Of a stretch of DNA of 64,000 bases, positions 38,276 to 58,893 are shown in pieces. The DNA is from Nannocystis bainbridge. GTDB lineage: Bacteria; Myxococcota_A; Polyangia; Nannocystales; Nannocystaceae. Where the stretch lies: contig NZ_JAQNDL010000003.1 of NCBI RefSeq assembly GCF_028368995.1, positions 768,001-832,000 on the forward strand. The letters run 5' to 3'. How positions within the stretch are numbered: the first letter of the stretch is position 1; every line of letters begins with the position of its first letter. The notes beneath the pieces are model-generated. The model was not told where the DNA came from. It was given only the letters and a program-made list of their open reading frames with translations, and ran no database searches. Made by a program: the position numbers and the translations under genes.

Positions 38276-38688
38276 AGGGCTCGGTCCTCGCCCGGTTACG
38301 CCGCGTCTCGACCAGCCCCGAAGGCCGCGCCCTTGTACATGCCGTCGATGACGCTGGCCTCGAGTACAAGATCGAGGTCCCGCTCGAGGCTGTCCGTGGG
38401 GTCAGCCCCGACCAGGGCCACGTCCTCGTGCTCTCGTGGTCGATCGAGCCGAGCACGCGAGCCGCCGAGCCAGCTGCGGCATCGATTCCGGCCGAACCCT
38501 CCTCGACCGCGACGACGCGCGTTTCCACCACGAGCGAGGTGGATCGGGCGTTCATGGCGTTGATGGGCCGTCCCCGCGGCTCGACATCCGCCGCCGAGTC
38601 CGATCCCGCCACATCTACCTCCGTCTCGACCGCTACGAATAGCACCTCCCAGGGGCTCGCCGAACTGCTCGGCCTGAAACACATTTGA
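38272..38688 (+). CDS. Hypothetical protein
   Basis: ATGA overlap; small beta N-domain, Ser/Thr-rich tail. Confidence 0.65.
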   Translation: MKGSVLARLRRVSTSPEGRALVHAVDDAGLEYKIEVPLEAVRGVSPDQGHVLVLSWSIEPSTRAAEPAAASIPAEPSSTATTRVSTTSEVDRAFMALMGRPRGSTSAAESDPATSTSVSTATNSTSQGLAELLGLKHI

Positions 38689-38777
38689 CCTGACCTGGAC
38701 CTCCAGACATTTAGCACCGCTCCTTCGCCCATTCGGGTGAGAGCCGAGAACACTCGTTTCAAAAATCAGGAGACACG

Positions 38778-39425: not shown

Positions 39426-39433
39426 GAGCTGCC

Positions 39434-40159: not shown

Positions 40160-40208
40160 TTGTGTGCGCCCGCGCCGAGACCCTCTCCATTCATCAAGGA
40201 GCATCACC

Positions 40209-42825: not shown

Positions 42826-42877
42826 ACGCTGTCCACGCCACTCGACGAGCGGAACCGCGCTGGTCTACCCTGCGCGT

Positions 42878-43243
42878 ATGAACGCTCGCGCCTTGATCGT
42901 CCCCGTCCTCCTTCTCCTTGTCGCCGACAGCGTCGGCTGCAAGGACGAGCCTACCGTCAACACGCCTGGTGAGTTCGGCGACCCATGCATCCCGGGCGAG
43001 AACGATGATACGCCCGATGGCTGCGTAGCTGGCATGGAGTGCTACGTGGGCTACTGCGAGGAAAAGTGCACTGAAGATATCGACTGCCAGGCAGTCGAAG
43101 GATGGAACCACGTCTGCGTGGCTGGGCTTTGTCACATCTCTTGCGATGGCGACACTGGTTGCCCCGAGACTCTTGGGGCCTCCCTGGTCTGTGGGGTCAT
43201 CGGTACTTCGCGTTGGTGTGAAGCTAAGGATGATGAATTATGA
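42878..43243 (+). CDS. Cys-rich lipoprotein
   Basis: VLLLLVADSVGC lipobox-like; many further Cys; lower GC. Confidence 0.7.
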   Translation: MNARALIVPVLLLLVADSVGCKDEPTVNTPGEFGDPCIPGENDDTPDGCVAGMECYVGYCEEKCTEDIDCQAVEGWNHVCVAGLCHISCDGDTGCPETLGASLVCGVIGTSRWCEAKDDEL

Positions 43244-45150
43244 AGTTCGATCCCAACAGCCGGCTTTTTGATCGAGTTCCTGATCTCTTCCAAAGCCCGT
43301 TTCCCGGCGCGGATGCCTACGCTGATAACGCATTTCAGGCTCTTCTGTCGAGGGCTATCGGGTCCGGACAGGGCCGAACGGTTGGTCAGGAACTTCTCAC
43401 ACAAGCAGGGGCCCAGGCGTGGAATCAGGCCACGCAGATGTTGTGGAAGTCCAAGGCGACACAGGCAGGCGATATTCTTGGCGACGTCTGGTCGAAAATT
43501 GCCTGGATTGATTCCAAGAAGGACTCCATTGCCGGCGTGTTGGCGGAGGTACCATTTCCGCTAACGACAGATCCGCAGCAACTTGTCAGCGCCATAGCTG
43601 GCGTGGCACTCGATCTAGCCCTCAACGCCGTAACCGCGGTGCCGGTGGTGGGGTGGATCGTGGGGATTGTGGTCGGCATCGGTCGCGCCTTGGCCCCTCT
43701 CTTCACGGGGCTCCTTAATGAGGACGACCAAGTTCTCGTCGAACGTCGTAATATGCTGCCTTGGCGTCGTTACAATGAGAAGATTGACCAATGGTGGGTC
43801 CAGAATTTTGTCAAGGTTGAAGCGGGAGGGTCCGACTGGACGCCGACGTTCTCACCACCCACCGAGGCGCACGCGTGGAGTCTCGCGGACGGCATTGATG
43901 AGGACGGTAACAAGATCGGGCAGGTGCTCGCGCCATTCTCGGGCAAGTCCGTTGCGTGGAACGGCGCCTACGGCTGCCTGCCCGGCACCTTTCGCGTCGC
44001 GGGGATCCTCCAGTATCGAGGCCGACCACAACCGCCGCACTCGGCGCTGCGCTTTTACAACGACGGCACGCTGATCCATCTCCACGGCGACTTCACGCAG
44101 ACGGGCGACTTTTACCCCTCGCTTCAGCAACTCGCCGGCACGTGCTGGCAGCAGGTCGCGGCCGGCGGCCCCGATAGCTACAAAGTCGACTGCGTCGCCC
44201 TCGAGAAGCTGTGGCGCGACTGGTTCACGGCGCTCTACACCTCGGTGATGGACCAGGGCCACGGAGACTGGCTCCTCGGCTACCTCGCGCGCGAGGTCCA
44301 CGGCGAGTGGCGGTTCGGCGCCAGCGCCTCCGGTGTCCTACGCCCCGAGGCCACGGACGGCACGACCGTTCCCCTTGTCACCCCAGGCACCTTCCAGAAT
44401 GGGGCGCTGGCGTCCCCGCGGTCGCGGACGACCTGCATGTATAGCGACCTCGTGCTCAAGGACAAACCGCGGACCCAGAGCGGATATCTGCCGCAAAAAT
44501 GGACGCGCGACGCCAAGACCAAAGAGTACGTTGCGCCGCAGATCTACGCCCAGACCGGCGGGCCCGGGATGGTCTGCGTCCCATGGCCGCCCGGCGAGCT
44601 GTTGCTCTCGAAGTACAAGCGGGCCGACGACATGATCGTCCTCCCCGCCGTTCGGGCGGTCGCCCAGCTCCAGCGGCGCCGGCTCTCACGCAGCCTCGAC
44701 TGCGCCTACGTCCGCCCCGACGCGGTCGGCGACAAGCCGGCCTACGCCGCCTTCCGCGACGCTTCGCTGAGGGCCCATTGCATCGAGATGCGCAAGCGCC
44801 TGCTTCAGCACCCGTCGCGGATGCTCGTCGAGTACGAGACGGCGCGCGAGGTCGACCCCGAGTACGCGAGCGCTCTCAAGGACGCCGGCGTGCCGACGAA
44901 CGCGATCCAGCGCGGGGCGGCCAAGCTCGGGCTGCGCGGCTCCGCCGGGGCCGAGGCGCTCGACCCGAAGACCCCGGCGCCCGATCGGCCTGTGCTACCG
45001 CAGGGCGGACTACCCTTTGACCCGGATCCCGAGCGGGACCGCGGCGGCCCCCGATGGCTCGGCCCCGCGGTACTCGGCGGCGCCGCACTCGCCACGACGA
45101 TCGCCGTCGCGGTCGGCGTCGCGCGAAGCAGAAGAACCAATGCACGATAG
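43240..45150 (+). CDS. 636-aa membrane protein with internal hydrophobic hairpin and C-terminal anchor
   Basis: AVTAVPVVGWIVGIVVGIG; ends AVLGGAALATTIAVAVGVA-RSRR. Confidence 0.75.
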   Translation: MKFDPNSRLFDRVPDLFQSPFPGADAYADNAFQALLSRAIGSGQGRTVGQELLTQAGAQAWNQATQMLWKSKATQAGDILGDVWSKIAWIDSKKDSIAGVLAEVPFPLTTDPQQLVSAIAGVALDLALNAVTAVPVVGWIVGIVVGIGRALAPLFTGLLNEDDQVLVERRNMLPWRRYNEKIDQWWVQNFVKVEAGGSDWTPTFSPPTEAHAWSLADGIDEDGNKIGQVLAPFSGKSVAWNGAYGCLPGTFRVAGILQYRGRPQPPHSALRFYNDGTLIHLHGDFTQTGDFYPSLQQLAGTCWQQVAAGGPDSYKVDCVALEKLWRDWFTALYTSVMDQGHGDWLLGYLAREVHGEWRFGASASGVLRPEATDGTTVPLVTPGTFQNGALASPRSRTTCMYSDLVLKDKPRTQSGYLPQKWTRDAKTKEYVAPQIYAQTGGPGMVCVPWPPGELLLSKYKRADDMIVLPAVRAVAQLQRRRLSRSLDCAYVRPDAVGDKPAYAAFRDASLRAHCIEMRKRLLQHPSRMLVEYETAREVDPEYASALKDAGVPTNAIQRGAAKLGLRGSAGAEALDPKTPAPDRPVLPQGGLPFDPDPERDRGGPRWLGPAVLGGAALATTIAVAVGVARSRRTNAR

Positions 45151-45161
45151 GGAGGTGGAAT

Positions 45162-46040
45162 GTGAAGTGGGGACTTCAGCATGTCAAGGTGACGCTCGAG
45201 GAGAGCGAATCAGGGGAGACCGTCGTCATCCAGCAGAGCTCGGATGGCCGCGTCACTTGTGAACGCGGAAAGCAGAGCAAATCCGAAAGCGCGGCAAACC
45301 ATGCACCGCGTGCTGCCAGGACCAAGACCGAGGCTTCCACGTCGGTCCCGGCGAAGCCGGTAGCGGAGAAGCGGCGCGAGGGGGAGGCACGCGCGGCCGA
45401 GGACAAACCGAAGGCCAGGGCCGCCGCAAAGAAGCCACGCGTCTCACAACCGGCAAGCCCGCCGAGCGGTGGCCGACGCACGTCGCTCGAGTGGATGCCG
45501 GTCAAAGATCACAAGTACGACGGCTTCGCCGCCCCGTCCGGCGCGGGGCATTTCAAGGCGCTGATTGCCGAGGGTACGCAGTGGGCGCTGTTCTTCGAGA
45601 TCAAGGGCATCGTGGTCAAACCCATCGCCTGCTTCGGCAAGGTCTCTGAAGCGAAGAAGCGCGCGCAGAAGCTCCACGATGCTGGCTGGCCCGAGTCCGA
45701 GTTCGGTCCTCTCACGGCGGGTCTGATCGCGCGCGCTTGCCCTGCGCCGGCGGGGAGGGCCGACGAGGGCACACAGCGAGGCGAAGAGCGGAAGGCCGCG
45801 CCAGAGACCGAGGAGAACCCGGCGCCCCCGAGGGTCGCGCCAAAGGCCAAGGAGAAGCCGGCCGTATCAAAGACCAAGGAGAAGCCGGCCGCGCAAGGGC
45901 CCGAGGAGAAGCCGGCCGCCCCGGAGCCCGAACCGAGGGGCCCGAGCAAGTCCGAAGCAGCCCAGGATCAGGAGCTGATGAGCGGCTTCACCAGCGAGAT
46001 CGAAAAGGCCCTCGACGAGGACGAGGACGAGGACGACTGA
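45162..46040 (+). CDS. Hypothetical protein with Lys/Ala/Pro-rich regions and acidic tail
   Basis: GGAGG RBS; repeated EKPA; ends DEDEDEDD. Confidence 0.65.
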   Translation: MKWGLQHVKVTLEESESGETVVIQQSSDGRVTCERGKQSKSESAANHAPRAARTKTEASTSVPAKPVAEKRREGEARAAEDKPKARAAAKKPRVSQPASPPSGGRRTSLEWMPVKDHKYDGFAAPSGAGHFKALIAEGTQWALFFEIKGIVVKPIACFGKVSEAKKRAQKLHDAGWPESEFGPLTAGLIARACPAPAGRADEGTQRGEERKAAPETEENPAPPRVAPKAKEKPAVSKTKEKPAAQGPEEKPAAPEPEPRGPSKSEAAQDQELMSGFTSEIEKALDEDEDEDD

Positions 46041-46041
46041 C

Positions 46042-46437
46042 ATGTCTCATCAGCCAGGATCCATCTACAAGATCGGCGGCCGACGCTACGTCGACAGCCA
46101 GGCCGTTTACAACCTCGCCGACGCCCACGAGGTCGTCGCGCAGCATGACGGCTGGCGCGTGATGCTCGGCGCGGGTGCGGTCCATTGCGCCCGCGTCGAG
46201 GACCGCCCCGAGCTCCCGCGTCAGCGCGGCGCCCTCTACGAGCTGTCCGCCGCGGGCGGCGCGAGCCTCAAGGCCCAGCGAGCCACGTGGCTCTCCCAGG
46301 GCCTCGTCCAGCCCGGCGGCACCTTCGACGCCTGGCCCGGCGACCCGCCGGCGAAACCCGGCTGCGGCGGCTGCGGCAAGACCTGCGGCTGCGGCCCCTG
46401 CCGCCTCGAGCACGACACTGGCGAAGAGCATTCGTAG
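46042..46437 (+). CDS. Hypothetical protein with Cys-rich tail
   Basis: GCGGCGKTCGCGPC. Confidence 0.7.
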   Translation: MSHQPGSIYKIGGRRYVDSQAVYNLADAHEVVAQHDGWRVMLGAGAVHCARVEDRPELPRQRGALYELSAAGGASLKAQRATWLSQGLVQPGGTFDAWPGDPPAKPGCGGCGKTCGCGPCRLEHDTGEEHS

Positions 46438-46446
46438 GAGAGACCT

Positions 46447-47088
46447 ATGAAGCCCGCCGAGCTCCTCAAGATCGTCTTGCCGCGCTGGCGCGCGAAGATG
46501 TCGCAGCAGTTCTCGCTGGCGACGCTCGATGGCTTTGTCCGTCGAAACCGTGCCACGCTCGAAGAACTCGTCGCGCGCGCGCTCGCAAGTCGCCAGGCCG
46601 CGCACGGTGCATTGCCGGAGACTCCCGAGGAGTTCGCCGCTTACGACCGGCTCGTCGCGCGTGAACGGCCCCAGGATGCCGAGTCGGACGAGGCCGTCCT
46701 GACGCGGTTGTTCGAGCGAATCGACGAGTTGTTCGCCGAGGGCTACCGGGAGCTCCTGGTGCTCCGCAACGTCGGGCTCGAGTTCGTCGATGCACGCGCC
46801 GAGGCCATCCTTCTGCGCAAGGCCGGCTGGGACTCCGTGCCGCTCCTTCTCGGCCGCCCCGCGCTCGCCTTCGTCATCGCCGGCGCTGTCATGGCGGTCC
46901 GTGACTCGATGGGCAGCCTCGCTATCCATCCGGACCAAAGAGGCAAGCTGAACCATCTCCACTTCGACCTCAACCGGGCCGAGCAGCGAGTCGTCGATCT
47001 ATACGAGGCCATCGACATCGGGAGCGACACCAAGGAGCGCCTGGGGCGCTTCGCGGAATCCCTCTGGAAGCTCGCACGCGCCGCCTGA
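46447..47088 (+). CDS. Stand-alone paralog of the N-terminal domain of the downstream helicase
   Basis: LPRWR.K, DGF..RNR, LVARERP.DAE and RAEAILLR.AGWD.VPLLL.RP occur in both. Confidence 0.8.
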   Translation: MKPAELLKIVLPRWRAKMSQQFSLATLDGFVRRNRATLEELVARALASRQAAHGALPETPEEFAAYDRLVARERPQDAESDEAVLTRLFERIDELFAEGYRELLVLRNVGLEFVDARAEAILLRKAGWDSVPLLLGRPALAFVIAGAVMAVRDSMGSLAIHPDQRGKLNHLHFDLNRAEQRVVDLYEAIDIGSDTKERLGRFAESLWKLARAA

Positions 47089-47125
47089 CTGCCGTCGATC
47101 GCCTCCCTCGCATACGGAGATCCTC

Positions 47126-50100
47126 ATGACCCCCGCTGCCATCCTCGACAAGCTTCTGCCCCGCTGGCGCACCAAGCTGTCGCCGAACTACTCGCCCGAG
47201 TACATCGACGGCTTCATTCAACGCAACCGCCCCATGCTCGAGGCCGTCGTCGCGCGCACGATGATGCTGCGCCGAATCAAGCGGGGCGACCCGCCCAAGA
47301 CAGTCGACGAGTTCGCGGTCTACGCGAAGCTCGTCGCGCGCGAGCGGCCGAAGGACGCGGAGCCCGACGCCGCCGTGGTCAAGCGCGTGCTGAAGCGCAT
47401 GGATAAGATGCTCGCCCGCAAGGGGGATCCGGCCGGCCAGGAAGCCGCGGGCGCATTCGGCGTCGAGTACGCCGAGCTTCGCGCCGAGGCGATTCTCCTG
47501 CGACGGGCCGGCTGGGATGCGGTCCCGCTGCTCCTACGCCGACCCTCGCTGGCGCTCTTCTCCGCCGGCTCGGTCGTCGTCGTTCGCGACGCCCAGAAGT
47601 CGCTGCACTTCTTCCCTGGCCTTGAGGATAGCGGGGAGAAGATCCGCGCCGATGTGGCGGAGGTGCAGAGGCGTGTCCTGCAGCTCCGTGACGGCATCGT
47701 CGACGCCGCCCGCTTCGATCGCTACGCCATGGCTCTGTGGACGCGCGCCCGCGCCGGTGGCACCTCGGCCACCCCCTCGCGCGAGATCGAGACCCCGCCC
47801 GACCTGCGCGACAAGTCGTGGCGCACCGAGGCCAACCTCCAGGCGATGCGCCTCGTGCTGTCCAAAGAGCCAGGCGAGCTCACCGCCGAGGACCTCCAGG
47901 CCCTCGCGCAATATTCGGGCTGGGGCGGCCTGTCGATCGACAGCGTCAAGAAGATGCTCCCGCCCGAGCTCGTCCCCGAGTCCTTCGGCCTGATCCACGA
48001 GTATTACACCCCCACGGCGATCACCGAGTCGATCGCCGAGGCCTTGTGCTCCCTGCTGCCCGAGCTTGCCGGCAACGACGGCATCGTCCGAGCACTGGAA
48101 CCCAGCGCGGGCGTCGGTCGCCTGATCCGCGCGTTCAGCCCGCGCCGCTGCCTCGCGCTCGAGGCCGGCGGCCAGATCAAGAAGATCGCCTGGACGGCCG
48201 TCGAGTTCTCCAAGGTCAGCTCAACGCTGCTCCGCGCGCTGCGCCCTGACGTCGACCTCTACCACCTGCCCTTCGAGCGCTGGGTCCGCGACGAGGGCCC
48301 CCGCTATCAGGGCACCTTCGGCCTCATCGTCTCCAACCCGCCCTACGGCGAGCGCGGCGCGATGGCCCGCGAGGACCCCGACGAGTTTTACAAGGAGAAG
48401 CGCGCCTTCGCATACTTCATGCGACGCGCGCTCGACCTCCTGGTCCCGGGTGGTGTCGGCGTGTTCCTGATCCCCGCCGGCTTCATGAGCGGCAACCTCA
48501 ATCGCAACCTGCGCGAGAAGCTGCTGCGCCGCCATCACCTGCTCGGAGCCTTCCGCCTGCCGAGTCACGATCGCAAGGGGCGCGAGACGGTGCCCGGTGC
48601 GTCGGTCGTGATGGACGTCGTCTTCTGGCGCAGCCGCGGCGGCGAGCTGACCGAGGTCGACCCTGCCGATGACTTCATCCTCGACGGCGACTACTTCAAA
48701 CATCACCCGGACCACGTCCTCGGAAAGGAGGACGGCTCATTTGCCGGGGACGACGAGGCCGGCATGGCGCGGAGCTGGCGCTACAAGGTCACAGGCGACT
48801 TCAAGGGTCTGCCTCCGATCGAGCCGCGGCCCGTCTGCACCGCCTGCGTGCTCACGTCGATCGTGCAGCGCGACGATGTCGGTACATTTCAAACGGTCGC
48901 GCGCGAGGACGATGGCATCCCCGCCGACGTCGACGAAGATTTGCGCCCGGCGCTCGAGCTCGGCCGCCGCGTCGGCCGCTACCTCGTCGCTGTCGGCGCC
49001 GACGAGGCCGACAGGGCCGCGCAGCTCTGGCCCGAGCTCCACACTGCGCTCCGCGACTTCTCCACGAGCTTCGGGAACCCCTGGCGCTCCAAGCCCCTGC
49101 GCGAGCTCGCCGAGGGCCGCCGCAAGCTCGCCACGGCCCAGCAGGTCCTCAACGCCTTCGAGAAGACCGGCAGCGTCGTCCCCGCGCTGCGGGAGGCGCC
49201 GGCGGTCGCGCCGAAGTTCTCCGGCCAGCCCGACGATGTCATCGCCCAGGCCGAGGGGCTCTTTCGCCAGCAGCGCGCCCTGACCGTCGCGCAGCTCATG
49301 AGCTTCCATCAGCGCCAGGGCGGCACGCTCTCGACCGAAGCCACCCTCGCGGCTCTCCTCGCTGCCGGCTGGAACCTCGACGGCGACGCATGGGATCAGC
49401 TCCTCCCGAGCGACGCCTACCTGACGGGCAACGATCTGTGGGAGCGCCACGACCGCGCCGTCGAGCGCGCCCGTCGCGGCGACGAGCAGGCCAAGGTGCA
49501 GGCTCGCCGGTTGCTCGAGGCGATCAAGCCCGCTGTCTTCGATGACCTCACCGACATCAGCCCCCAGCACGGCTACGTCCCGCTGGACCTCGTCGCCGGC
49601 TGGATCTCCGCGACGTTGAACGGCCGCTACGGCGCCATCGAGCTCGAACGCAAGGGCGGCTTCGTGCAGGTCCGCGGTCACGATTACACAGCCGAGAACC
49701 TGCCCCCGATGGCGCCGGAGACCCTCGCGTTCCTTGGCTACTACAATCACGACCCCGAGCTCTTCCGGCCGCCGCAGGAGAAGCGGGAGCGCGACGCTGG
49801 GCCTACGAGCCGCGAGGATCGGGCCGCCAAGAAGCAGAGCCTCGCCGAGCGACGGCTGGCCCTGGCGAAGAAGTGGGACGAGTCGTTCAGGGCGTGGGTC
49901 GCCGCCGACGAAGCCCGACGTGAGCAGCTCGTCCACGCCTACAACCGAATCGCGCGCGGCCGCGTCGTCCCGACGTTCTCGCCCGAGCCCCTCGACATCG
50001 TCCGCTGGGGCTCGCACGCGCCGAAGCTCAAGCCGCACCAGATCGCCGGCGCACGCCGCGTGCTCGCGCAGCGTGGCGGCCTCGTCGCCTTCGACGTCGG

Positions 50101-53100
50101 CGTCGGCAAGACCTACACGGCGCTGGCGATCATCGCCCGCGCGCGCCAGGAGGGCTGGGTCCGGCGCCCCGTGATCCTCGTGCCCGGCTCTCTCGTGTGG
50201 AAGTGGCACGACGACATCCTCTGCACGTTGCCCGACTACCGCGTCGTGGTGATCGGCTCGAAGCGCAAGCGGATCACGCGCGGCGTCCGAAAGGACGTCA
50301 TCACCTCCGAGACCGACACCCCGCAGGAGCGGGCGAAGAAGTGGATCGCGCTCCAGACCGGTCAGGCCGACGTCGCCGTGCTCAGCTACGACGCGCTCGC
50401 GCGCACCAAGATGAACGAGGACGCGGTGATGGCCTATGTCGAGCAGGTCGAGGCCGTCTCGCGCTCGATCGCCCTCCGCAAGCGGACGCTCGAGGAGAAG
50501 GCGAAGAACGCCAAGCAGCGCGACAAGCTGACCGAGCGCGAGCGGGCGTTGCTCGAGCATGGCGTGCGCGCGTGGGTCGAGGAGATCCTCGCGCTGCCCT
50601 CCGACTGGGAGTACGACCCGGGCGTCGCATGGGACGAGCTCGGCATCGACATGCTCGTGATCGACGAGGCCGCTGCGTTCAAGAACCTCTACAAGCCGCA
50701 GGCGCGCGAGGACGGGGTGCCGAAGTTTATGGGTGGCGGTGGCGAGGGCTCCGACCGCGCCTGGCAGGTCGACTTCCGCGCGGCCGCCGTGCGCCGCCAG
50801 ACCGGTGGCGCCGGCATCGTCCTGCTCACCGCGACGCCCGCGAAGAACAGCCCGCTCGAGTTCTACAACCTGATCCAGTTCATCGACCCCGCCGCCTTCA
50901 CCAGGTCCGGCATTCGCGACCCCGAGCAGTTCATCGATCGGTTCCTCAAGATCGAATACCGCGAGGTCCTCGACGCCGCCTTCGACGTCACGAAGAAGAG
51001 CGCCGTGACCGGGTTCAAGAACCTCGATGACCTCCGCACGATCATCTTCACCTACGGCGAGTTCCGCACCGCCGCCGAGGTCGGCCTCAAGCTGCCGCGC
51101 CCGCTCGTCGAGACCCTCACGATCACGATGGACGAGGAGCAGGAGGCGAAGTACGCCCGCTACGTCGCGCAGATCGAGCGGATCCTCGAGAACCCGAACC
51201 CTGAAGGGGGCGAGAGCTACGCGATCCTCGGCCTCCTCGCGCGCCTGTCGCTGATCGCTCTGCACGCGTCGCTCGAGGACGGCTACAGCTACAAGACCGC
51301 GCTCGAGGGCGGCACGGTCCAGAAGCGCGTGTATCAAGACGGCGAGCCCGTCGAGGTCACTGTCCGGCTCGGTCGCCCGACCTACGAGAGCCCGAAGCTG
51401 ACCGAATGCGCGAAGCGGGTCGCAGCGAGCCCGCACTGCGGCCACATCATCTTCTGCGAGCCCACGGCGGTTCATCAGTGGATGCGCGAGGTCCTGGTGA
51501 AGCACGGGATCCCGCGCGAACGGATCGCCATCCTCAACGCCGAGGAGACCGCCCCCGCCGACCGGATCCGGATCGCCCGCGAGTTCAACGGTCTGTCCTC
51601 GGAGCCCCCCGCGCCCGGCACGTGCGCGCGTCCCACCGACAGCGCCATCGCGCCGAAGTACGACGTCGTCATCGCCAACTCGGTCGCCTACGAGGGCATC
51701 GACCTGCAGGTCCGGACCTGCACCATCCACCACCTCGATCTGCCCTGGACCCCCGCCGACCTCGAGCAGCGCAACGGCCGAGCCGTGCGCCAGGGCAACA
51801 CGCTCGGCACCGTCCAGATCTTCTACTACTTCGCCGACGGCTCGACCGATGGTTACCGATTCTCGCTCATCGACGGCAAGGCCGGCTGGCTCGGGGAGCT
51901 GATCAAGTCGCAGGTCCGCGACACCAACAACCCCGCGGCGCAGCAGCAACTCACGCCCGAGGACATCCTCCTGATGATCTCGCGCAACAAGGAGAAGACG
52001 CGCGCGTTGCTCGAGGAGAAGCGGAAGCGCCAGGTCGAGGAGGCGCGCGCCAGGATCGCCAAGGAGGCCGCGCGCCTGCTCCGGCAGGCGGCAGGCCGCT
52101 TCCGCGACGCCCGCACGAGCGCCGACCCGGAGCGCGCCGCCCGTCTGCGCGACGAGGGTGAACAGCGCCTCGCCGACCTCGAGCAGGTCAGCCCGGACGC
52201 GTGGCCGTGGGCGCCGTGGATGTACGCCGTCCGCGACGCGGACATGATCATCCCCGAGAACGGTGGCGCCCCGGTCTACGAGGGTCTGCGCGTCGCCCGG
52301 CCCCGCGCCGGTGCGCCGGACCAGCTCGAATACCTCGAGTTCGGCCAGATCGTCAGCACCGACGAGGGCGACAAGATCGGCCTACGGGCCGCGGGCTCGC
52401 CGGGCTGGCAGCTCATCGCCTACACCGGCACGCTCAACGGAACGCCCATCGCCGCCCGCGAGCTCCCGCGCGATGGCGGCCCGCTGTGGCCCGACGACGA
52501 CGACGCGCGCACAGGCGCCGCGATCGAGAAGAAGATCGACGAGGTCTTTCGCTACGGCCGATTCGAGAGCCTGCGCTGGCGCGGCGCCAGCGACGTCTGG
52601 CTGGAGAAGTGGTGGCCGCGCTTCGAGACGCCAATCACGGAGGGCCTCGCGCGGTCGCACCAGCGTGAGCAGGTGCCCGTAGTCGACGCCGAGGGCCTGG
52701 CGATCGCTACGGGCGCGGAGCTTCGCGGCGCCTCGATCGTCCCGCCAACCCGCGCCGGCTGGCAGGGCTTCCTCGAGCTCGCCCCGTCGAGCGGCGAGAG
52801 TTTTACCAACCTGAAGGACATCGGCCTGGCCTGGTGGGGCCGCAAGGTCCCGCAGGACCTGCTCTCGAAGCAGCGCAACTTCCTGCGCCACTTGATCGCG
52901 CCACGCCTGCTGGACGATCCCGCGTACCGCAACGCCCGCGAGAACTCCGACGCCCAGAACGCGCGCATCGAAAACGACAAGGCGCTCGGCCGAGTGATGC
53001 TGGCCCTCTTCAACGAAGATCCCGAGAGCCACGGCGAGCTCTACCGCCGCTTCTCCGACGACGAGGCGTTCCGCCGCTCGCTCCACGAGCAAGCCTTCGC

Positions 53101-55354
53101 CGAGACCTACTCGACGAGCGGAAAACCACGGCAGGGCGCATCAGAGAGCGACGCGGCTGAGCCCGAGGACCGCGACCAGCGCATGGCCGACCTCCCGCCA
53201 GCGACGACCGACGAGACTCGCCCACGTGCGGGACAGGCTGCCGCCAAACAGCTCGCGCGCAGACTTCGGGCCTTGCTGAGCGGCGTCAAGATCGGGCGCT
53301 TCCGGTATCACACGCCGCATAGCGAGGCGAGCGGGGACGAAGTCGAGATTGACTTCGTAGGCGAGTCGCCGGACGCACCGATTCTCACTCTGCGCGCGGC
53401 GCCCCGGCAGGGCAGCGAGATCGATCTCCGGGGCGAGCTCGCCGACGAAGACGGCGAGCTCGTCGCCAGCTTCGGCTGGATCGCCATCGAGCTCCGGGAC
53501 CTTATCGCCATGAAAGAGACCTCGTTCGCGCACTGGTTCGGTATGCCCGTCGTCGCCGAGCCGAGGCTGTCGCCCGTGATGCGCGAGGCCCTCGCTGCGC
53601 TCCGCGCGGAGGAAGAAGCGAAGCCCTATGACATGTACTTCTGGCCAGGTGTCCATGATGCGACCCGGGACAGCCTGATCGCCCGTGGACTGGTAGAAGC
53701 CCTGGAGAACAAGAAGGGCGGAGCCCCCCACTTCAGGACGACCGCGGCGGGCCGGGCCAAGCTGGCCGAAATCGGAAGCCCAGTGGCAGCAACTGCCAGC
53801 GCGCCGCCCGTGAGCGACCCCGGCCAGCCCTACGAAGAGGCCCGCGGCGCGATCAAGGCGCTGGGCTTGCCGATCAAGAAGTACGCGTACTACGTCACCC
53901 AGGCCGAGACCGCGGTCGCCAGCGGCAAGAGCTACCTGCCCATCGTCGAGCGGGCGCGCAAGACTGCCGAGAAGCTCAAAGGCGACAGCGGCGACGGCAA
54001 GCCGAGGAGCCGCGTGGTTCCGCAAACCACAGGCTCCCGCCAACGGCTCGTCGACGTCGTGCTCGACACCTTCAACGCCTCGCCGCGCTGGCGCCTCGCC
54101 CAGCTACGCACGCGCCCCAACGGCCACGTGCTCGTCGTCTACCCCGAGGGCCGCGACCCGGACGGGGCGGTGGCCGCGATCGACATCGTCATGGAGGAGG
54201 TCGACGACGTCCGCTGGCTCGACGGAGGGGTCCCACGAGCCGACCAGGACACGATCATGGAGCGCCTCGACCGTGCTCTGTGGGCCGCCTTCGAAGTGCG
54301 CGAGGAGGAGGAACGAACGAGCCAAGCCGACAAGGAGGGAGCCGACAAGGAGGGAGCCGAAACTCCCTCGCCCATCCAGGGACTCATCGAAATGATGGAG
54401 CGGCGCAGCAAGTCCCTCGGGGCACGTTCAGACATCAGCCTCGACCTCGCGCGCGGCGACGGCTACGGGCAAATCGCGGAGGCCCTGCGCGACCTCGCCG
54501 AACCGTCTGGTCCCGCCGTCGACGAACTCGAGCGCTGGCTCGAGTCGGCGCAGCTCATGGACGCGGCCCTTGTGCTGCGTCGCCGCCAGGACGCGCCGCC
54601 CCGGGAACTTCTCGCCAATCTGTGGACCGAGGTTCTATCCGCGCTCCCGCTTGATGAGATCGAGGTGGCGGAGTCCGGCGAAATGCTTGTGCCCGAGGGT
54701 GCGCTGTTCGGTGAGATCCGCAAGGAGTTCGTCCTCGAGCGAGTAGAGGACAACGGGCGCGTGTCGTTGCGGCGGATCAGTGTCTTCATGACCCCTGACA
54801 TGGAGGGCTCTCCAGCCGAGCGCACCGAGCGCGCACGCCGCAAGGCGTTTGAGCCGGAGGCAGAGCGCGCCGAGGACGAGCGTGTGTTCTGGATCGAGGA
54901 CTTCAAGGGCCGTGTGAACGAAGGATCCCGCGTGCATCGACGGTTGCGTGACGCAAAGTTCTTCGTCGATCTCTACAGAAGGATCGGCGACTTCCACGAC
55001 AACCTTCTTCGAGCACCGAAGACCCTCCAGGATGTCCGCATGCTGCTCTACTGGACGGCGGCCATGCTCGACGCCCCATTGTGCCAGGGAGACGTCAAGG
55101 CGCGGGCAATCATCGCTTTCGAGCAGGCCAAGGCGTATTACGACACCGCCCGCAGCCGGCTGATTGAGGGCAGCACCGCCGATGCCGTCCGCCGCCTGCA
55201 CGAGGCCATGCGGCGGATCAGCGCCGCGGCGGCCGAGATAGCAAAGAGTTGCGGCGAGGGGCAGATCGACATCGCCGTCACGCCGCCGCACCTGCCGGTG
55301 CGACCCGAGGACAAGGCCGCGATCGAGGGCGGCGAGGTGGAGGTGAGACCATGA
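47126..55354 (+). CDS. DarB-like N6-adenine methyltransferase plus SNF2/SF2 helicase fusion (2742 aa)
   Basis: YSGWGG, EYYTP, LEPSAGVG, NPPY; GVGKT, DEAA, TATP..NSPLE, HLDLPWTPADLEQRNGRAVRQGN. Confidence 0.9.
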   Translation: MTPAAILDKLLPRWRTKLSPNYSPEYIDGFIQRNRPMLEAVVARTMMLRRIKRGDPPKTVDEFAVYAKLVARERPKDAEPDAAVVKRVLKRMDKMLARKGDPAGQEAAGAFGVEYAELRAEAILLRRAGWDAVPLLLRRPSLALFSAGSVVVVRDAQKSLHFFPGLEDSGEKIRADVAEVQRRVLQLRDGIVDAARFDRYAMALWTRARAGGTSATPSREIETPPDLRDKSWRTEANLQAMRLVLSKEPGELTAEDLQALAQYSGWGGLSIDSVKKMLPPELVPESFGLIHEYYTPTAITESIAEALCSLLPELAGNDGIVRALEPSAGVGRLIRAFSPRRCLALEAGGQIKKIAWTAVEFSKVSSTLLRALRPDVDLYHLPFERWVRDEGPRYQGTFGLIVSNPPYGERGAMAREDPDEFYKEKRAFAYFMRRALDLLVPGGVGVFLIPAGFMSGNLNRNLREKLLRRHHLLGAFRLPSHDRKGRETVPGASVVMDVVFWRSRGGELTEVDPADDFILDGDYFKHHPDHVLGKEDGSFAGDDEAGMARSWRYKVTGDFKGLPPIEPRPVCTACVLTSIVQRDDVGTFQTVAREDDGIPADVDEDLRPALELGRRVGRYLVAVGADEADRAAQLWPELHTALRDFSTSFGNPWRSKPLRELAEGRRKLATAQQVLNAFEKTGSVVPALREAPAVAPKFSGQPDDVIAQAEGLFRQQRALTVAQLMSFHQRQGGTLSTEATLAALLAAGWNLDGDAWDQLLPSDAYLTGNDLWERHDRAVERARRGDEQAKVQARRLLEAIKPAVFDDLTDISPQHGYVPLDLVAGWISATLNGRYGAIELERKGGFVQVRGHDYTAENLPPMAPETLAFLGYYNHDPELFRPPQEKRERDAGPTSREDRAAKKQSLAERRLALAKKWDESFRAWVAADEARREQLVHAYNRIARGRVVPTFSPEPLDIVRWGSHAPKLKPHQIAGARRVLAQRGGLVAFDVGVGKTYTALAIIARARQEGWVRRPVILVPGSLVWKWHDDILCTLPDYRVVVIGSKRKRITRGVRKDVITSETDTPQERAKKWIALQTGQADVAVLSYDALARTKMNEDAVMAYVEQVEAVSRSIALRKRTLEEKAKNAKQRDKLTERERALLEHGVRAWVEEILALPSDWEYDPGVAWDELGIDMLVIDEAAAFKNLYKPQAREDGVPKFMGGGGEGSDRAWQVDFRAAAVRRQTGGAGIVLLTATPAKNSPLEFYNLIQFIDPAAFTRSGIRDPEQFIDRFLKIEYREVLDAAFDVTKKSAVTGFKNLDDLRTIIFTYGEFRTAAEVGLKLPRPLVETLTITMDEEQEAKYARYVAQIERILENPNPEGGESYAILGLLARLSLIALHASLEDGYSYKTALEGGTVQKRVYQDGEPVEVTVRLGRPTYESPKLTECAKRVAASPHCGHIIFCEPTAVHQWMREVLVKHGIPRERIAILNAEETAPADRIRIAREFNGLSSEPPAPGTCARPTDSAIAPKYDVVIANSVAYEGIDLQVRTCTIHHLDLPWTPADLEQRNGRAVRQGNTLGTVQIFYYFADGSTDGYRFSLIDGKAGWLGELIKSQVRDTNNPAAQQQLTPEDILLMISRNKEKTRALLEEKRKRQVEEARARIAKEAARLLRQAAGRFRDARTSADPERAARLRDEGEQRLADLEQVSPDAWPWAPWMYAVRDADMIIPENGGAPVYEGLRVARPRAGAPDQLEYLEFGQIVSTDEGDKIGLRAAGSPGWQLIAYTGTLNGTPIAARELPRDGGPLWPDDDDARTGAAIEKKIDEVFRYGRFESLRWRGASDVWLEKWWPRFETPITEGLARSHQREQVPVVDAEGLAIATGAELRGASIVPPTRAGWQGFLELAPSSGESFTNLKDIGLAWWGRKVPQDLLSKQRNFLRHLIAPRLLDDPAYRNARENSDAQNARIENDKALGRVMLALFNEDPESHGELYRRFSDDEAFRRSLHEQAFAETYSTSGKPRQGASESDAAEPEDRDQRMADLPPATTDETRPRAGQAAAKQLARRLRALLSGVKIGRFRYHTPHSEASGDEVEIDFVGESPDAPILTLRAAPRQGSEIDLRGELADEDGELVASFGWIAIELRDLIAMKETSFAHWFGMPVVAEPRLSPVMREALAALRAEEEAKPYDMYFWPGVHDATRDSLIARGLVEALENKKGGAPHFRTTAAGRAKLAEIGSPVAATASAPPVSDPGQPYEEARGAIKALGLPIKKYAYYVTQAETAVASGKSYLPIVERARKTAEKLKGDSGDGKPRSRVVPQTTGSRQRLVDVVLDTFNASPRWRLAQLRTRPNGHVLVVYPEGRDPDGAVAAIDIVMEEVDDVRWLDGGVPRADQDTIMERLDRALWAAFEVREEEERTSQADKEGADKEGAETPSPIQGLIEMMERRSKSLGARSDISLDLARGDGYGQIAEALRDLAEPSGPAVDELERWLESAQLMDAALVLRRRQDAPPRELLANLWTEVLSALPLDEIEVAESGEMLVPEGALFGEIRKEFVLERVEDNGRVSLRRISVFMTPDMEGSPAERTERARRKAFEPEAERAEDERVFWIEDFKGRVNEGSRVHRRLRDAKFFVDLYRRIGDFHDNLLRAPKTLQDVRMLLYWTAAMLDAPLCQGDVKARAIIAFEQAKAYYDTARSRLIEGSTADAVRRLHEAMRRISAAAAEIAKSCGEGQIDIAVTPPHLPVRPEDKAAIEGGEVEVRP

Positions 55355-55545
55355 CCGAACAACAGTTCATGCAGCGGACGCAGGAGCGGATCGAGCAGCT
55401 CCGCGACGAGCAACGGCGCCTCCATGAGCGGCTGGCGACGGACCTGAGGCAGATGCAGGGCCTGAGGATGGGCCTCGGCGTCCTCGCGGGTACCCTCGCG
55501 CTGGGCCTCGGCCTGAGCGTCGGCTACCAGATCGGGAGGCGATGA
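55351..55545 (+). CDS. Small coiled-coil tail-anchored protein
   Basis: Heptad N-terminus, GLGVLAGTLALGLGLSVGY, RR. Confidence 0.7.
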   Translation: MTEQQFMQRTQERIEQLRDEQRRLHERLATDLRQMQGLRMGLGVLAGTLALGLGLSVGYQIGRR

Positions 55546-55546
55546 G

Positions 55547-55753
55547 ATGGCCGAAGCACTCACCAAGTCGCAGTCGGAGGTCGACAACGTGCTGTTCGAC
55601 GCTACCGAACACCAGCGAACGTTTGCCCTCAATTACGGCGACGCCGTCGATAAGCTCAGGCGCAAGCTCGTTCACGAGGTCACGATCGCCACGACGGTGG
55701 GACTCGTGCTCGGGGGTCTCGTCGGCACGATTGTCGGCATGAGGAGGCGCTGA
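55547..55753 (+). CDS. Small tail-anchored protein
   Basis: VGLVLGGLVGTIVG-MRRR. Confidence 0.7.
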   Translation: MAEALTKSQSEVDNVLFDATEHQRTFALNYGDAVDKLRRKLVHEVTIATTVGLVLGGLVGTIVGMRRR

Positions 55754-55755
55754 CC

Positions 55756-56649
55756 ATGGCTCGCTCATCCGAGTGGGAGAAGCTGGAGATGGCGCAGGGC
55801 GACCCGAAACCCACATGGCCGCTGCCGACGGTGACACCGAAGTTTGCGACCTGGAGCGTCGGCGGCGGCAGGCCCTACGGCTGCGAGACCGACAAGTGCG
55901 AGCGATGGCACGCAGGCGTCGATCTCACCGGCGCACCGGATGGCGCGCTGATCCTCGCGCCCGAGGACGCGCTGGTCGTCGGCATCGATCGCGGCTGGAG
56001 CGAGGGCTCCAAGGCGGCGTTCCTGCGCACCAGCTCGGGCCTGTTCGTGGTGCTCGGGGGCTTCAAGGCCGGCTCGCACAAGGAATACGGCATCACGACC
56101 GGCCAGCAGGTGCGCAAGGGCGACAAGCTCGGGCGCGTGCTCGGCTCCTACGGGATGATTCACCTCGAAACGTACATCTCCGAGACGCGCACCGCGAACT
56201 CCGTGTGGTGGAGGACCGAACCCCCGCCGGACGGTTTGATGAACCCGACCAACTACGTCGAGCGGATGGTCGGCGACAAGGTCTCCCTGCTCCAGACGCA
56301 GCAGCGACTCGAGGCGCTCAAGACCCTCGGCTACTACAAGGGCGACCTCAGCGCGACGTGGGGGGCGACCTCCACGGAGGCGCTACGCGCCGCCCAGGCG
56401 GCTCTCGGGATTGGGGTCGACGGCAAGTGGGGACCCGAGACGGAGGATGCGATCCAGCGCGCCCTGGCCACGATCCAGGGCTGCTCCGCCGATGAGTGCA
56501 GCCCCTCGAGCGGCAGCGCGGTCACAGATGGGGCGAGCTCGGATCCTCTGAGAGCCGTCAGCCGGGTCGGCTGGTGGATCATCGGCGGCGCGACCGTCGC
56601 CGGCGTCGCCATCGGTCTTGCGGTAGCAATGCGAGCCCGCGAGGAGTAG
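55756..56649 (+). CDS. M23-family peptidase with peptidoglycan-binding domain and C-terminal anchor
   Basis: HAGVDL, VRKGDKLG, MIHLE; LGIGVDGKWGPET; C-terminal TM. Confidence 0.85.
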   Translation: MARSSEWEKLEMAQGDPKPTWPLPTVTPKFATWSVGGGRPYGCETDKCERWHAGVDLTGAPDGALILAPEDALVVGIDRGWSEGSKAAFLRTSSGLFVVLGGFKAGSHKEYGITTGQQVRKGDKLGRVLGSYGMIHLETYISETRTANSVWWRTEPPPDGLMNPTNYVERMVGDKVSLLQTQQRLEALKTLGYYKGDLSATWGATSTEALRAAQAALGIGVDGKWGPETEDAIQRALATIQGCSADECSPSSGSAVTDGASSDPLRAVSRVGWWIIGGATVAGVAIGLAVAMRAREE

Positions 56650-56680
56650 CGGGTACCTCTCGTAAGGATGGAGGATAAAC

Positions 56681-57034
56681 ATGAATGACCAACGTCGCAT
56701 GCCGACTCTCGCGACAGAACTGTCGGTGTTCTCGTGCCATCAATCCGAGCTCATCGCTGGCGTCTTGAGCAAGCACCCGAACCTCGCTTCACTCCTGGTA
56801 CGGATCGCGGAGCAGGTTTCGCGCGTTTTCAGGAGCGAGACGGTCAAGCAGCTTCGACTGCGCCCCAGCTCGGGGCCATACCCTGCCGAGGATGTCGGTC
56901 TCGTGGTGGATATCGTCGTTACCGCAGATGAGTCAGATGCCCGCGCATCGCTCGGCCGATTCGACGAAGAGTGGTGGTTCGAGGCGTCGGGGCGGTGTCC
57001 CGTCGAGATCGTCATCGACATCCGCCGGGAATGA
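56681..57034 (+). CDS. Hypothetical protein
   Basis: GGAGG RBS; RFDEEWW; somewhat lower GC. Confidence 0.6.
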   Translation: MNDQRRMPTLATELSVFSCHQSELIAGVLSKHPNLASLLVRIAEQVSRVFRSETVKQLRLRPSSGPYPAEDVGLVVDIVVTADESDARASLGRFDEEWWFEASGRCPVEIVIDIRRE

Positions 57035-57043
57035 GAGTGTGCC

Positions 57044-57721
57044 ATGAATCGTGCGTTCCTCGTCACCGCTCTCGTCACCGGCTCGGCACTGGTCGGCGCA
57101 GGCTATCTCCTGCGCAGCAGACCGCATGGGCGAGCGTTGCCTTCGAGCATCATTCCAATCGTCACGCCGGTGATCGACGTAAGGGTGGCGGAGCACGTGC
57201 TCGGGGTGATGGAGCGTCTCCCGGGAGACGAAGTCACGCTGCTCCTTCACACCGCCGGCGGGTGCGTGACGTCGTGCGTGATGATCGCCAATGCATTGCG
57301 AGAATTCGAGCGCTCGACGGCGATCGTCCCCTACATGGCGCTCTCGGGTGGCACGCTGATCGCCCTCAACGCACAGCAGCTCGAGATGGGCCGCGGGGCG
57401 TCGCTCTCGGCGGTCGACCCCATCGTCAGCGGACAACGGGCCCGACACCTGCCTGACGAAGAACCGCCGAGCGGAATCGCCGCGATCGCCCGTGAGTACG
57501 AGGTCGCCATGGCCCGGTACGTCCGCGAGACCCTGGCCGCGCGGCTGCCAGAAATGGGTGAGTCAGCGGTCAAGCGCGCGATGGACGTGTTCATGGGAGA
57601 GCACGCGCCGCACGAATGGCCGATCCGCCGGCAAGAGGTCGAGGCGCTCGGTCTTACTGTCGGCCCGGCGGCGCGTTCCTGGGCTGAAATGGTCGATGTG
57701 TATCGAAAGAGGTGGTGGTGA
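57044..57721 (+). CDS. Membrane-anchored ClpP-like serine protease (SDH_sah/S49 type)
   Basis: N-terminal TM; LLHTAGG, VPYMALSGGTLIAL, AVDP, HEWPI. Confidence 0.85.
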   Translation: MNRAFLVTALVTGSALVGAGYLLRSRPHGRALPSSIIPIVTPVIDVRVAEHVLGVMERLPGDEVTLLLHTAGGCVTSCVMIANALREFERSTAIVPYMALSGGTLIALNAQQLEMGRGASLSAVDPIVSGQRARHLPDEEPPSGIAAIAREYEVAMARYVRETLAARLPEMGESAVKRAMDVFMGEHAPHEWPIRRQEVEALGLTVGPAARSWAEMVDVYRKRWW

Positions 57722-57933
57722 TGTCGGAAATGAGCGAGCAGACCGTAGCGAAGGTGACCTGCGAGGCGCCAGGCGAGGAGCAGCCTCGCGTCGAGGTCCT
57801 GAGCGAAGCACTCTGCACCGCGTCCGAGCTGCGCCAGGCGGTCATCGCCGGCGCGATCACCTCGGGGATCTTCTGCACGATCGTGGGCATGGGTATCGGC
57901 TACTTGCTCGCCCCGCGCAGGGGGAGGGATTAG
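57721..57933 (+). CDS. Small tail-anchored protein
   Basis: AVIAGAITSGIFCTIVGMGIGYLL-APRRGR. Confidence 0.65.
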   Translation: MSEMSEQTVAKVTCEAPGEEQPRVEVLSEALCTASELRQAVIAGAITSGIFCTIVGMGIGYLLAPRRGRD

Positions 57934-57935
57934 CG

Positions 57936-58229
57936 ATGCAGTTCTCGATGCTCAACCTGCTGGCGGGCCGCCGGCACCAGCTCGGCGCCCTGGTATTGAT
58001 GCGCGGCGAGACCTTCATCGAGACGATCGAAGAGGGCGGCATGGCCGTGTTCCTCGTGCTGCGCGGTACGGCGACGGTCTCGCGCCAGCGCGCGGGAGCC
58101 CAGGCCGGTCTGCACCTGACGCCGCGCCTCGGTGAACCCGTGTGGCTGACGAGCCCGGGGACCTACTGCGTGGTCGCCAAGGATCAGGTCGTCGGCGTGC
58201 GGATGCTGAAGACGGGAGGTGGATCTTGA
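57936..58229 (+). CDS. Small beta-rich (cupin-like) protein
   Basis: VFLVLRGTATV strand pattern. Confidence 0.5.
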   Translation: MQFSMLNLLAGRRHQLGALVLMRGETFIETIEEGGMAVFLVLRGTATVSRQRAGAQAGLHLTPRLGEPVWLTSPGTYCVVAKDQVVGVRMLKTGGGS

Positions 58230-58819
58230 GCTTCGGCGGGCTCGAGATGGAGACCGCGCCGGAGACGGCGAGCTTCCGGCACTACCGCCGCCGGATGTGG
58301 CAGGCGATCCGCACACGGTTCGAGGAGGCGGTGGTCGGAGCGCGAATGCTGGGCCTCGACGACGACGAGGCGTGCAAGGTCGCCGCGCGATCTATCCGGG
58401 GGGACATCCGTGCCTTCATGTCGGAGCTCTTGACGCTCGCCCCGGTGCCGGCGCTCCTCGAGTTCCTCCCCGCTGGCCGGGACTGGGGTACGGCCGGTGA
58501 GCGGCTGTTTCAGCAAAGCGACGCGGTCACGGCGCTGATTGATAGCGCGTACCCGCGACCGACCTGGACCGAGCTCGGCTCCTTGAGCCCGCAAGCTGCC
58601 GAGGACGACGCGCAGTGGTCGGCCTGGGCGACATCGTGGGCCGCGACGCTCGGTGCCACCGACTCCGCGGCCGAGAAGGCGCTGGCCCCTGAACCGGCCA
58701 CTTCGACGATGTCCGATGCGAAGGAGCCCTGGTCGCTGCGGAGGTGGGCCCCATGGCTCGCCAGCGCGGCGGCGGTGATCAGTGCCACCACGATCGTGGT
58801 GGCGACGACGAGGAAATAG
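58226..58819 (+). CDS. Tail-anchored protein
   Basis: Ends RRWAPWLASAAAVISATTIVVATTRK. Confidence 0.65.
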   Translation: MSFGGLEMETAPETASFRHYRRRMWQAIRTRFEEAVVGARMLGLDDDEACKVAARSIRGDIRAFMSELLTLAPVPALLEFLPAGRDWGTAGERLFQQSDAVTALIDSAYPRPTWTELGSLSPQAAEDDAQWSAWATSWAATLGATDSAAEKALAPEPATSTMSDAKEPWSLRRWAPWLASAAAVISATTIVVATTRK

Positions 58820-58893
58820 GGCCCGAGGACCGAGCGCAGGGCTTCGGCCATCGGAGTGCGTGGGAGACGGGCAAGGGAGGCAGGAGGACAGCC

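Follow-up and report, generated by a model that had tools for sequence, protein, structure and literature searches.

The DarB-like polyvalent protein P0002 of Nannocystis bainbridge, a 2742-aa protein encoded on an integrase-bearing mobile element, contains a five-helix module (aa 1918-1996) that, judged by sequence comparison, is genuinely homologous to the extreme C-terminus (hereafter the tail) of one family of type I restriction HsdR subunits. The gene (47126..55354, + strand) lies in a 64-kb stretch of NZ_JAQNDL010000003.1 (768,001-832,000), here called the window, to which all positions refer, and the module occupies 52877..53113 on the same strand, as delimited by homology searches and by models made with AlphaFold2 (AF2). 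The module was probably captured from an HsdR, and a plausible, if tentative, reading of its function is that of a decoy that would bind the HsdM2-HsdS methyltransferase core (M2S), compete there for the HsdR docking site and so inhibit the enzyme.

The original prediction, which placed the peptide IAPRLLDD...AFAETY in a DarB-like open reading frame (ORF), likened it to the extreme C-terminus of HsdR and regarded it as a captured domain, agrees letter for letter with aa 1924-1995 of P0002 (nt 52895-53110). As had been claimed, the segment lies after the helicase domain, about 370 aa past Helicase_C (aa 1510-1557). The range given for it, 52870-53112, does enclose the peptide but is out of register: the codons begin at 52871, and reading from 52870 gives the wrong frame. 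When aa 1895-2005 of P0002 were used as the homology query, a phmmer search of 1.84 billion cluster representatives returned 573 proteins at E<=1e-3, 79 of them at E<=1e-10. The match ended within 15 residues of the C-terminus in 109 of the 154 hits examined, most being short metagenomic fragments, and HsdR domains (T1R_D3-like, HSDR_N or SWI2_SNF2) were found in six of the 30 longer hits that were scanned with Pfam. Three full-length 1009-aa proteins with HSDR_N, SWI2_SNF2 and T1R_D3-like domains were matched at E 3e-12 to 8e-12 in a search of 5.8 billion sequences that was confined to longer proteins, and cluster mates of one of these carry the source name 'type I restriction enzyme R subunit'. 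By BLASTP, the segment showed 57% identity to these HsdRs over 69 aa (residues 936-1000) and 52% over 79 aa (residues 926-1000), with E-values against full-length HsdRs of 9e-22 and 4e-21, and alignment of the DarB-family module with the HsdR tail by hhalign gave a probability of 99.6% (E 5.7e-23, 74 columns). The likeness seen in the original prediction is therefore a strong one.

Searches of annotated replicons gave the same picture of the match. Thirty of 72,556 plasmid records were matched by tblastn, and the coding sequences under these matches were annotated as type I R subunit (22) or 'hypothetical protein' (3), the other five having no listed feature. In the Meiothermus and Klebsiella plasmid records, the matched gene is the last of an hsd operon and the match covers its final ~80-90 codons. 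Among 50,697 phage records, the one tblastn match is the end of a 1023-aa ORF (hsdR) that follows ORFs of 611 and 466 aa, and apart from this gene the module was not detected in P1 DarB or in any other phage record. The segment matched no Pfam or NCBIfam family at E<=10; a sequence search of solved structures in the PDB returned only an annexin at E 0.47, which is noise, and a search of the ESM Atlas returned no usable match.

Some BLAST alignments extended the HsdR homology back to aa ~1807, and this extension was rejected as drift by hhalign: aa 1780-1917 against the HsdR pre-tail region gave a probability of 0.1% and E 0.29, no better than two cross-controls. Since hhalign finds similarity in the module and none upstream of it, the homologous unit is taken to be aa ~1918-1996. 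An AF2 model of aa 1600-2020 had a mean predicted local distance difference test score (pLDDT) of 90.6 and a predicted template modelling score (pTM) of 0.77. The helices of the module span model residues 315-330, 333-341, 344-365, 367-379 and 381-395, with block pLDDT of 82-96, and confidence falls after aa 2000 (pLDDT ~46-53). Foldseek returned no fold match for this model at E<=1e-3.

The distribution of the module within the DarB-like family bears on its origin. A search with aa 1560-2742 identified 48 homologues, all from Nannocystis species or metagenomes and between 1646 and 3647 aa long. The module is carried by eight of the 49 family members (P0002, its paralogue in the same genome, and six others), in which it follows directly on the end of the conserved core (...LLSKQR). 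Collinear homology stops at aa 1910-1918 in 35 of the 48 homologues, which are those that do not have the module and do not align straight through the region, and in many of these it picks up again at ~2020 or ~2230. In the remaining family members, the core is followed by an acidic linker and then other recurring cassettes, or by the end of the protein. Capture from HsdR is inferred because of this distribution and this position, exactly at the end of the conserved core, and capture from a type I HsdR tail, not common descent, is well supported by these sequence comparisons, as the original prediction had proposed. In a FastTree phylogeny of 167 module sequences, from which hits aligned over fewer than 60 model positions had been dropped, the 11 modules from Nannocystis-type DarB-like proteins group in a single clade with a support of 0.925. 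Reading the direction of transfer from a tree was given up, the midpoint-rooted FastTree of 171 module sequences being unrootable and the mobile-element forms not forming one clade. Other post-core cassettes among P0157-P0204 carry the motifs 'EEVDRRV.DNL..AA..DAL.MGG' and 'ALGLP..K..Y...' and a Cys/His motif 'CERCGH...ECPAG'. No known Pfam domain was found in the variable tails of 18 family members scanned; each shuffled cassette could be a further counter-defence unit.

The module is under purifying selection. Between P0002 and its paralogue, the ratio of nonsynonymous to synonymous substitution rates (dN/dS) was 0.19 in the module (aa 1918-2000; 83 codons, 6 replacements), 0.09 in the core (aa 1-1917) and 0.28-0.29 in the regions downstream. 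Among seven other full-length homologues, from several Nannocystis genomes and metagenomes, module identity was 64-96%. The near-invariant tail positions in the module alignment (A1) are A-Y-x-N-A, S-D, N-A-x-I-E-H-D-x-A-L, F...T-Y and the W of RRWL. Most of these are kept in P0002, including N42 and E55, two invariant columns of A1; those changed are H56 (to N), K80 (to R) and the Trp (to S). That the module might be a relic of recombination with no function of its own, as its place in a region of shuffled cassettes might suggest, is scarcely credible in view of this selection and identity, its confidently modelled fold and its recurrence in unrelated polyvalent proteins.

This recurrence was seen when IMG/VR was scanned with the module alignment, which yielded 74 loci. 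In 64 of these the module ends an ORF with a match to the HsdR body, and six match only the last ~170-290 HsdR residues, four of the six being truncated by the end of the contig. The other four (L105, L108, L110 and L111) carry a divergent module and are otherwise without HsdR similarity. In L105, a 2648-aa protein, the module (aa 780-863) lies upstream of an Eco57I methyltransferase and an SNF2 helicase, and L110, which has no Pfam match, closely resembles L105 around the module. The module of L108 follows a MutS_I domain and that of L111 directly precedes LPD25, a polyvalent-protein domain. These four loci have 46-52% G+C, and their modules are 31-35% identical to that of P0002. Among other proteins with the module, the fragment P0097 belongs to a different DarB-like lineage (phrog_10089, E 8.2e-89), and P0072 (1526 aa) and P0057 (549 aa) have only the module in common. 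The HsdR tail was also found joined to OEP, M16 peptidase, NADAR, GATase and carbamoyl-phosphate synthase sequences in P0074, P0079, P0111, P0119, P0137 and others; these look like chimeras of assembly or gene calling rather than real architectures.

The role of the tail in its family of origin was approached through models and gene neighbourhoods. An AF2 model of the C-terminal 270 aa of the myxobacterial HsdR of L027 (80-row alignment) had a mean pLDDT of 82.9 and a pTM of 0.48. A confident helical domain at model residues ~21-120 (block pLDDT 84-97) is followed by a low-confidence linker of ~45 residues (121-170; block pLDDT 46-54) and a confident six-helix bundle, the tail (171-270; block pLDDT 81-97), so that in the model the tail is a self-standing domain attached through a long, flexible linker. 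A VIA-align match to a Bacteroides fragilis HsdR fragment (3evy_B, Z 5.6) lies on the helical domain only and was set aside. The tail is not always the free end of HsdR, because further domains trail it in some proteins: the HsdR of the Nannocystis genome G435 extends ~139 aa past the tail with an extra domain also present in the fragment P0010, and P0144 has a Swt1-like HEPN region there (E 5.2e-5, under the Pfam cut-off). An unannotated region of ~135 aa also follows the tail in the metagenomic fragments P0064 and P0123.

The genes of tail-family HsdRs lie in genuine operons that also encode HsdS and a ~780-aa HsdM, which has HsdM_N and N6_Mtase domains and ~290 extra C-terminal residues. 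The best 120 HsdM homologues are 74-100% identical, and the named organisms among them span several phyla; the tail-bearing type I family is conserved and widely transferred. Of 76 loci with a tail-bearing hsdR, 55 have both the hsdM core and the extension, six have the extension only and none has a core without it, the other 15 showing no hsdM within the flank taken; the extension is thus present at all 55 loci with an hsdM core in view. The three tail-less type I loci found in relatives all encode an HsdM-like frame that continues for only ~84 residues beyond the core and does not match the extension. This co-occurrence fits a contact between tail and extension. A complex of the segment with HsdM, which the original prediction had put forward as a check on docking, was modelled with the 782-aa HsdM of L027 (41-row alignment) and query residues 22-108 (76-row alignment). 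It scored 0.50 (runs of 0.50, 0.51 and 0.46), against 0.17 for the best of three controls; the runs share at least 96% of their contacts, and partner pLDDT is at least 80. In the calibration of the method, 58 of 80 solved complexes reached the mark, as did 2 of 110 mismatched pairs; with a score of 0.60 or less it was reached by no more than 7 of the 80 solved complexes and by both of the mismatches that passed. These counts are rough, since custom alignments were used. The prediction lends weak support to binding of HsdM by the module.

The occurrence of possible targets was examined in the source genome and its relatives. In the source genome (an 11.05-Mb assembly, 90.5% complete) the module is found only in the two DarB-like genes, and the N6-adenine methyltransferase cores detected are distant ones. 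When 400 other genomes of the phylum were sampled, the tail was found in 16, never in a DarB-sized frame; its ORF measures 997-1082 aa in 11 of them and 110-635 aa in the other five, several of these shorter frames being on short contigs. Among 72 other genomes of the family, G435, of the same genus, has a tail-family HsdR in an hsdM-hsdS-hsdR operon (L037, G435:C2:7714000-7733000; hsdM frame 11364-13847 and HsdR frame 6629-10048, both on the minus strand), and this HsdR is 88.5-89% identical to a reference tail-bearing HsdR over residues 1-1000. Module-bearing DarB-like frames are present in two other genomes of the genus.

The most economical function for the module is interference with the type I family from which it came. 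In the proposed mechanism, the HsdR tail would be the docking piece that keeps HsdR on the HsdM2-HsdS core. On entry of the element into a cell with a tail-family type I system, the module copy would take the docking site; HsdR would then be shut out of the cutting complex R2M2S1, and the core methylase would stay free. This would be subunit mimicry, in contrast to the DNA mimicry of Ocr or ArdA. Such interference fits the role of DarB against type I systems, P1 DarB being described in the text of PMC5512222 as protecting P1 DNA from type I restriction, and the HsdR C-terminal region has long been held to contact the methyltransferase (PMC5248579). A wider proposal, possible but held with more doubt than confidence, is that mobile elements disarm type I systems by subunit mimicry: a tail copy seated on HsdM2-HsdS would exclude HsdR and leave, or even promote, a pure methylase that protects the incoming DNA. 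Under this proposal the strategy would have arisen or spread in at least two unrelated polyvalent lineages (the high-GC myxobacterial DarB-like proteins, and those of ~46-52% GC with LPD25, MutS-I or methyltransferase-SNF2 regions), and the decoy form would be recognisable by its having lost the HsdR-specific Trp.

Several observations weigh against a decoy. Most members of the DarB-like family (41 of 49) do without the module. The source genome, at 90.5% completeness, has neither a TIGR00348 HsdR nor a tail-family HsdM, the target family is found in only one of ten other genomes of the genus (G435), and the hsdM gene of that genome has a single in-frame stop at codon 370 of 827. The five helices of the module are equivalent to helices 2-6 of the HsdR bundle and helix 1 has no counterpart, so that the complete six-helix bundle on a linker near the C-terminus that characterises the HsdR tail is not found in P0002. 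AF2 moreover joins the module to the preceding domain, and because there is no low-confidence linker between them, the docking surface may be partly buried. In the P0002 copy the nearly invariant H of 'IEHD' is replaced by N, and the 'RRWL' Trp is W in 143 of 153 HsdR-type sequences, some of which are fragments of unknown architecture, but in just one of the 18 forms from mobile elements, where S (11) and R (6) take its place; these 18 derive from about five independent lineages. With the HsdR C-terminal model as query, Foldseek gave no match at E<=1e-3 and the top VIA-align Z was 6.5, within noise for helical bundles; the tail also has no sequence match to solved HsdR structures. Because neither sequence nor fold gave an informative match, a docking role for the tail rests on analogy. 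Co-occurrence of tail and extension may reflect co-inheritance within one family alone, and a pass at a complex score such as that obtained is, by the calibration, weak evidence, of a kind that misleads more often than not when binding was not already likely.

These same points bear on the other explanations. The tail might serve HsdR in some way other than docking on the methylase, for example by contacting DNA or a second R subunit, by self-association or as a site recognised by a regulator or protease, and the copy might then do the same job or soak up the same partner. We consider this rather unlikely: tail and HsdM extension co-occur (55/55 vs 0/3), the predicted complex scores well over its three controls, and a generic motor accessory would not be expected in just eight of 49 family members or in proteins that have no motor. 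In its favour, no structure or experiment links the tail to HsdM, the fold searches were uninformative and the complex score is weak, and additional domains trail the tail in some HsdRs (G435 and P0144).

An unlikely alternative, which draws on the same binding evidence as the decoy reading (co-occurrence and the predicted complex), is that the module tethers the whole DarB-like enzyme to the host M2S core at recognition sites, blockage of HsdR being a side effect. Such a tether might place the methylase and translocase of the element where restriction starts, or might stimulate host methylation of incoming DNA. Fusion of the module to the methyltransferase-SNF2 core with no low-confidence linker would suit this arrangement, as would the action of DarB in cis on injected DNA that is described in the text of PMC5512222. 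It fits poorly with the modules of L108 and L111, whose frames encode neither a methylase nor a helicase, and with the many family members that have no module. Docking of the module within P0002, read as a fused M-plus-motor enzyme, on its own gamma-class methyltransferase in the way that an HsdR tail might sit on HsdM, is suggested by the AF2 packing of the module beside the last core domain; we regard it as very improbable, given that only the Eco57I/N6_Mtase core was found in this methyltransferase, without the ~290-aa extension, and that 41 of 49 homologues function without the module. The decoy reading is the one that we would put forward, tentatively.

In PHROG, P0002 matches phrog_11801 'DNA methyltransferase' (E 6.8e-168) and phrog_10089 'DarB-like antirestriction' (E 5.9e-70), and, consistent with its original description as DarB-like, a gamma-class N6-adenine methyltransferase and, after it, an SNF2-type helicase are fused in a single large protein of a mobile element. 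The methyltransferase catalytic region (aa 393-473; 48302..48544, +) matches Pfam Eco57I (PF07669, E 2.3e-10), with a further N6_Mtase match at E 0.0025, under the Pfam cut-off. The SNF2-type superfamily 2 motor (50024..51796, +) comprises an N-lobe (aa 967-1096) and Helicase_C, with Pfam E-values of 5e-15 (SNF2-rel_dom), 1.4e-6 (ResIII) and 2.4e-6 (Helicase_C). It is followed by the post-helicase part of the family core, to aa 1917 (51797..52876, +), as defined by BLASTP of the 48 homologues. Beyond the module, AF2 pLDDT and BLASTP delimit a low-confidence acidic linker and a second swappable cassette (aa 1997-2230; 53114..53815, +); the motif of this cassette, 'RPRAG...RYH.P...APRQG.EIDL.GEL', stands directly after the core in P0158, P0159, P0164, P0171, P0176 and P0199. 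The C-terminal region (aa 2231-2742; 53816..55351, +) is 26-53% identical to that of many family members by BLASTP, and its high-scoring segment pairs start at about aa 2202-2237 in many homologues. Neither the linker and second cassette nor the C-terminal region has a Pfam or PHROG match. Hallmarks of HsdR are absent from P0002, with no HSDR_N, PF18766 or T1R_D3-like domain in Pfam and no TIGR00348 match at E<=10, and inhibitor families of the ArdA/Ocr type gave no Pfam match at E<=1 on the whole protein or at E<=10 on the segment. The third-codon-position G+C of the ORF is 0.89. PF28555.1 is assigned to nearly all family relatives (P0003, P0157-P0204) in a remote index.

The element that carries this gene was delimited by blastn against a second, diverged copy in the source genome (G000:C2:~1905241-1930521; L029/L030) and spans 35631..63278 (~27.7 kb) of a window that is 68.6% G+C. 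Between these positions the window and G000:C2:1905000-1945000 share collinear blocks of 82-92% nucleotide identity; window positions ~46644-47071 and ~57888-59731 have no good counterpart in the second copy. A tyrosine integrase is encoded at the right end (62192..63313, +; Pfam Phage_integrase E 2.4e-16, phrog_1 E 1.8e-42). No phage structural genes were recognised in the element in Pfam and PHROG scans, in which the nearest to phage-type matches were an S49/SDH-type protease and a protein with M23 and peptidoglycan-binding regions, and no packaging or transfer genes were recognisable by Pfam, PHROG or tblastn against phages. Its 636-aa and 704-aa proteins had no tblastn match among phages, and no tRNA was found in the window. 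Almost all genes of the element are without a Pfam or PHROG match. Just beyond it, window positions 27643-32150 encode a 1119-aa Ser/Thr-kinase-like ORF (phrog_2361, E 6.7e-48) and, on the opposite strand, a radical-SAM protein (phrog_1802, E 2.6e-26).

Several tail-family operons have additional genes. On the Meiothermus taiwanensis plasmid NZ_CP021131.1 (L007, 53056-56664), extra genes between hsdS and hsdR encode DUF4433 and macro-domain proteins, and an AAA ATPase with a DUF4276 protein, which presumably resemble DarTG and PARIS-type pairs. A 504-aa macro-domain protein is encoded between hsdS and hsdR in G390 (L026:11086-12600), and a DUF262 gene lies upstream of the operon in the Meiothermus and Klebsiella records. 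On the Klebsiella pneumoniae plasmid NZ_LR890193.1 (L008), insertion sequence elements and an annotated mcr-10.1 are within a few kb of the hsdMSR operon, and by the annotation of this region tail-family hsdMSR is carried on IncF plasmids.

The mode by which DarB-type giants act against type I restriction has been unclear since P1 DarB was described. The finding of an HsdR piece in a swappable effector region leads to a concrete hypothesis, namely that the module competes with HsdR for its docking site in a single type I family, and to a first candidate function for the conserved, unannotated HsdR tail and the ~290-aa HsdM extension. If it is true, scanning polyvalent proteins for fragments of defence subunits would be a general route to counter-defence domains and to subunit interfaces. 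An HsdR-derived anti-restriction domain was not found in the literature covered, including passages of PMC5512222, PMC12707154 and bioRxiv 10.1101/2023.04.06.535777; such a domain is not named in the text of PMC5512222, whose supplementary domain lists might include the module as an 'LPD'.

Like the tail of HsdR, examples of which are WP_027888418.1 (Meiothermus taiwanensis plasmid), WP_032676776.1 (Klebsiella/Enterobacter plasmids) and P0153-P0155, the module has the same five helices (52-57% identity over 69-79 residues) and the motif A-Y-x-N-A ... S-D-x-Q-N-A-R-I-E-x-D-K-A-L ... L-[FY]-[KR]-x-F-x-D-[ND]-x-x-F-[RK] ... T-Y; unlike that tail, it is internal to a methylase-SNF2 protein that has no HSDR_N nuclease. 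The C-terminal region of EcoR124I HsdR (PDB 2W00, 7BTQ) has no sequence similarity or fold match to module or tail, and tail-family HsdR matches EcoR124I HsdR solely over residues 141-445. A separate extreme C-terminal domain of EcoR124I HsdR was reportedly shown, in a 2018 JBC paper, to be needed for assembly and DNA binding, and by analogy with the C-terminal regions of EcoR124I and EcoKI, neither of which has detectable sequence similarity to it, it is plausible that the tail is the methyltransferase-docking part of its HsdR.

The protein inhibitors known to act on type I enzymes either mimic DNA or have small, unrelated folds. Ocr, ArdA, ArdB/KlcA and lambda Ral are likewise aimed at type I systems and carried on incoming mobile DNA; these are DNA mimics or unrelated folds, whereas the module would mimic the docking piece of a subunit and act on one type I family. 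P0002 matched none of the Pfam families of these inhibitors. ArdA is also found as a polyvalent-protein domain, according to the text of PMC5512222, which describes the methylase-helicase dyad and many 'LPD' domains in polyvalent proteins and, in DarB-like proteins, an N-terminal LPD36 domain before the methyltransferase (Iyer et al. 2017, PMC5512222); Pfam reported no LPD family for P0002. P1 DarB and DarB-like proteins, as presented there, likewise have an N6-adenine methyltransferase followed by an SNF2 helicase in a mobile-element giant with variable extra domains. P1 DarB differs in that the module was not detected in it, and the P0002 element differs in having no recognisable phage structural genes.

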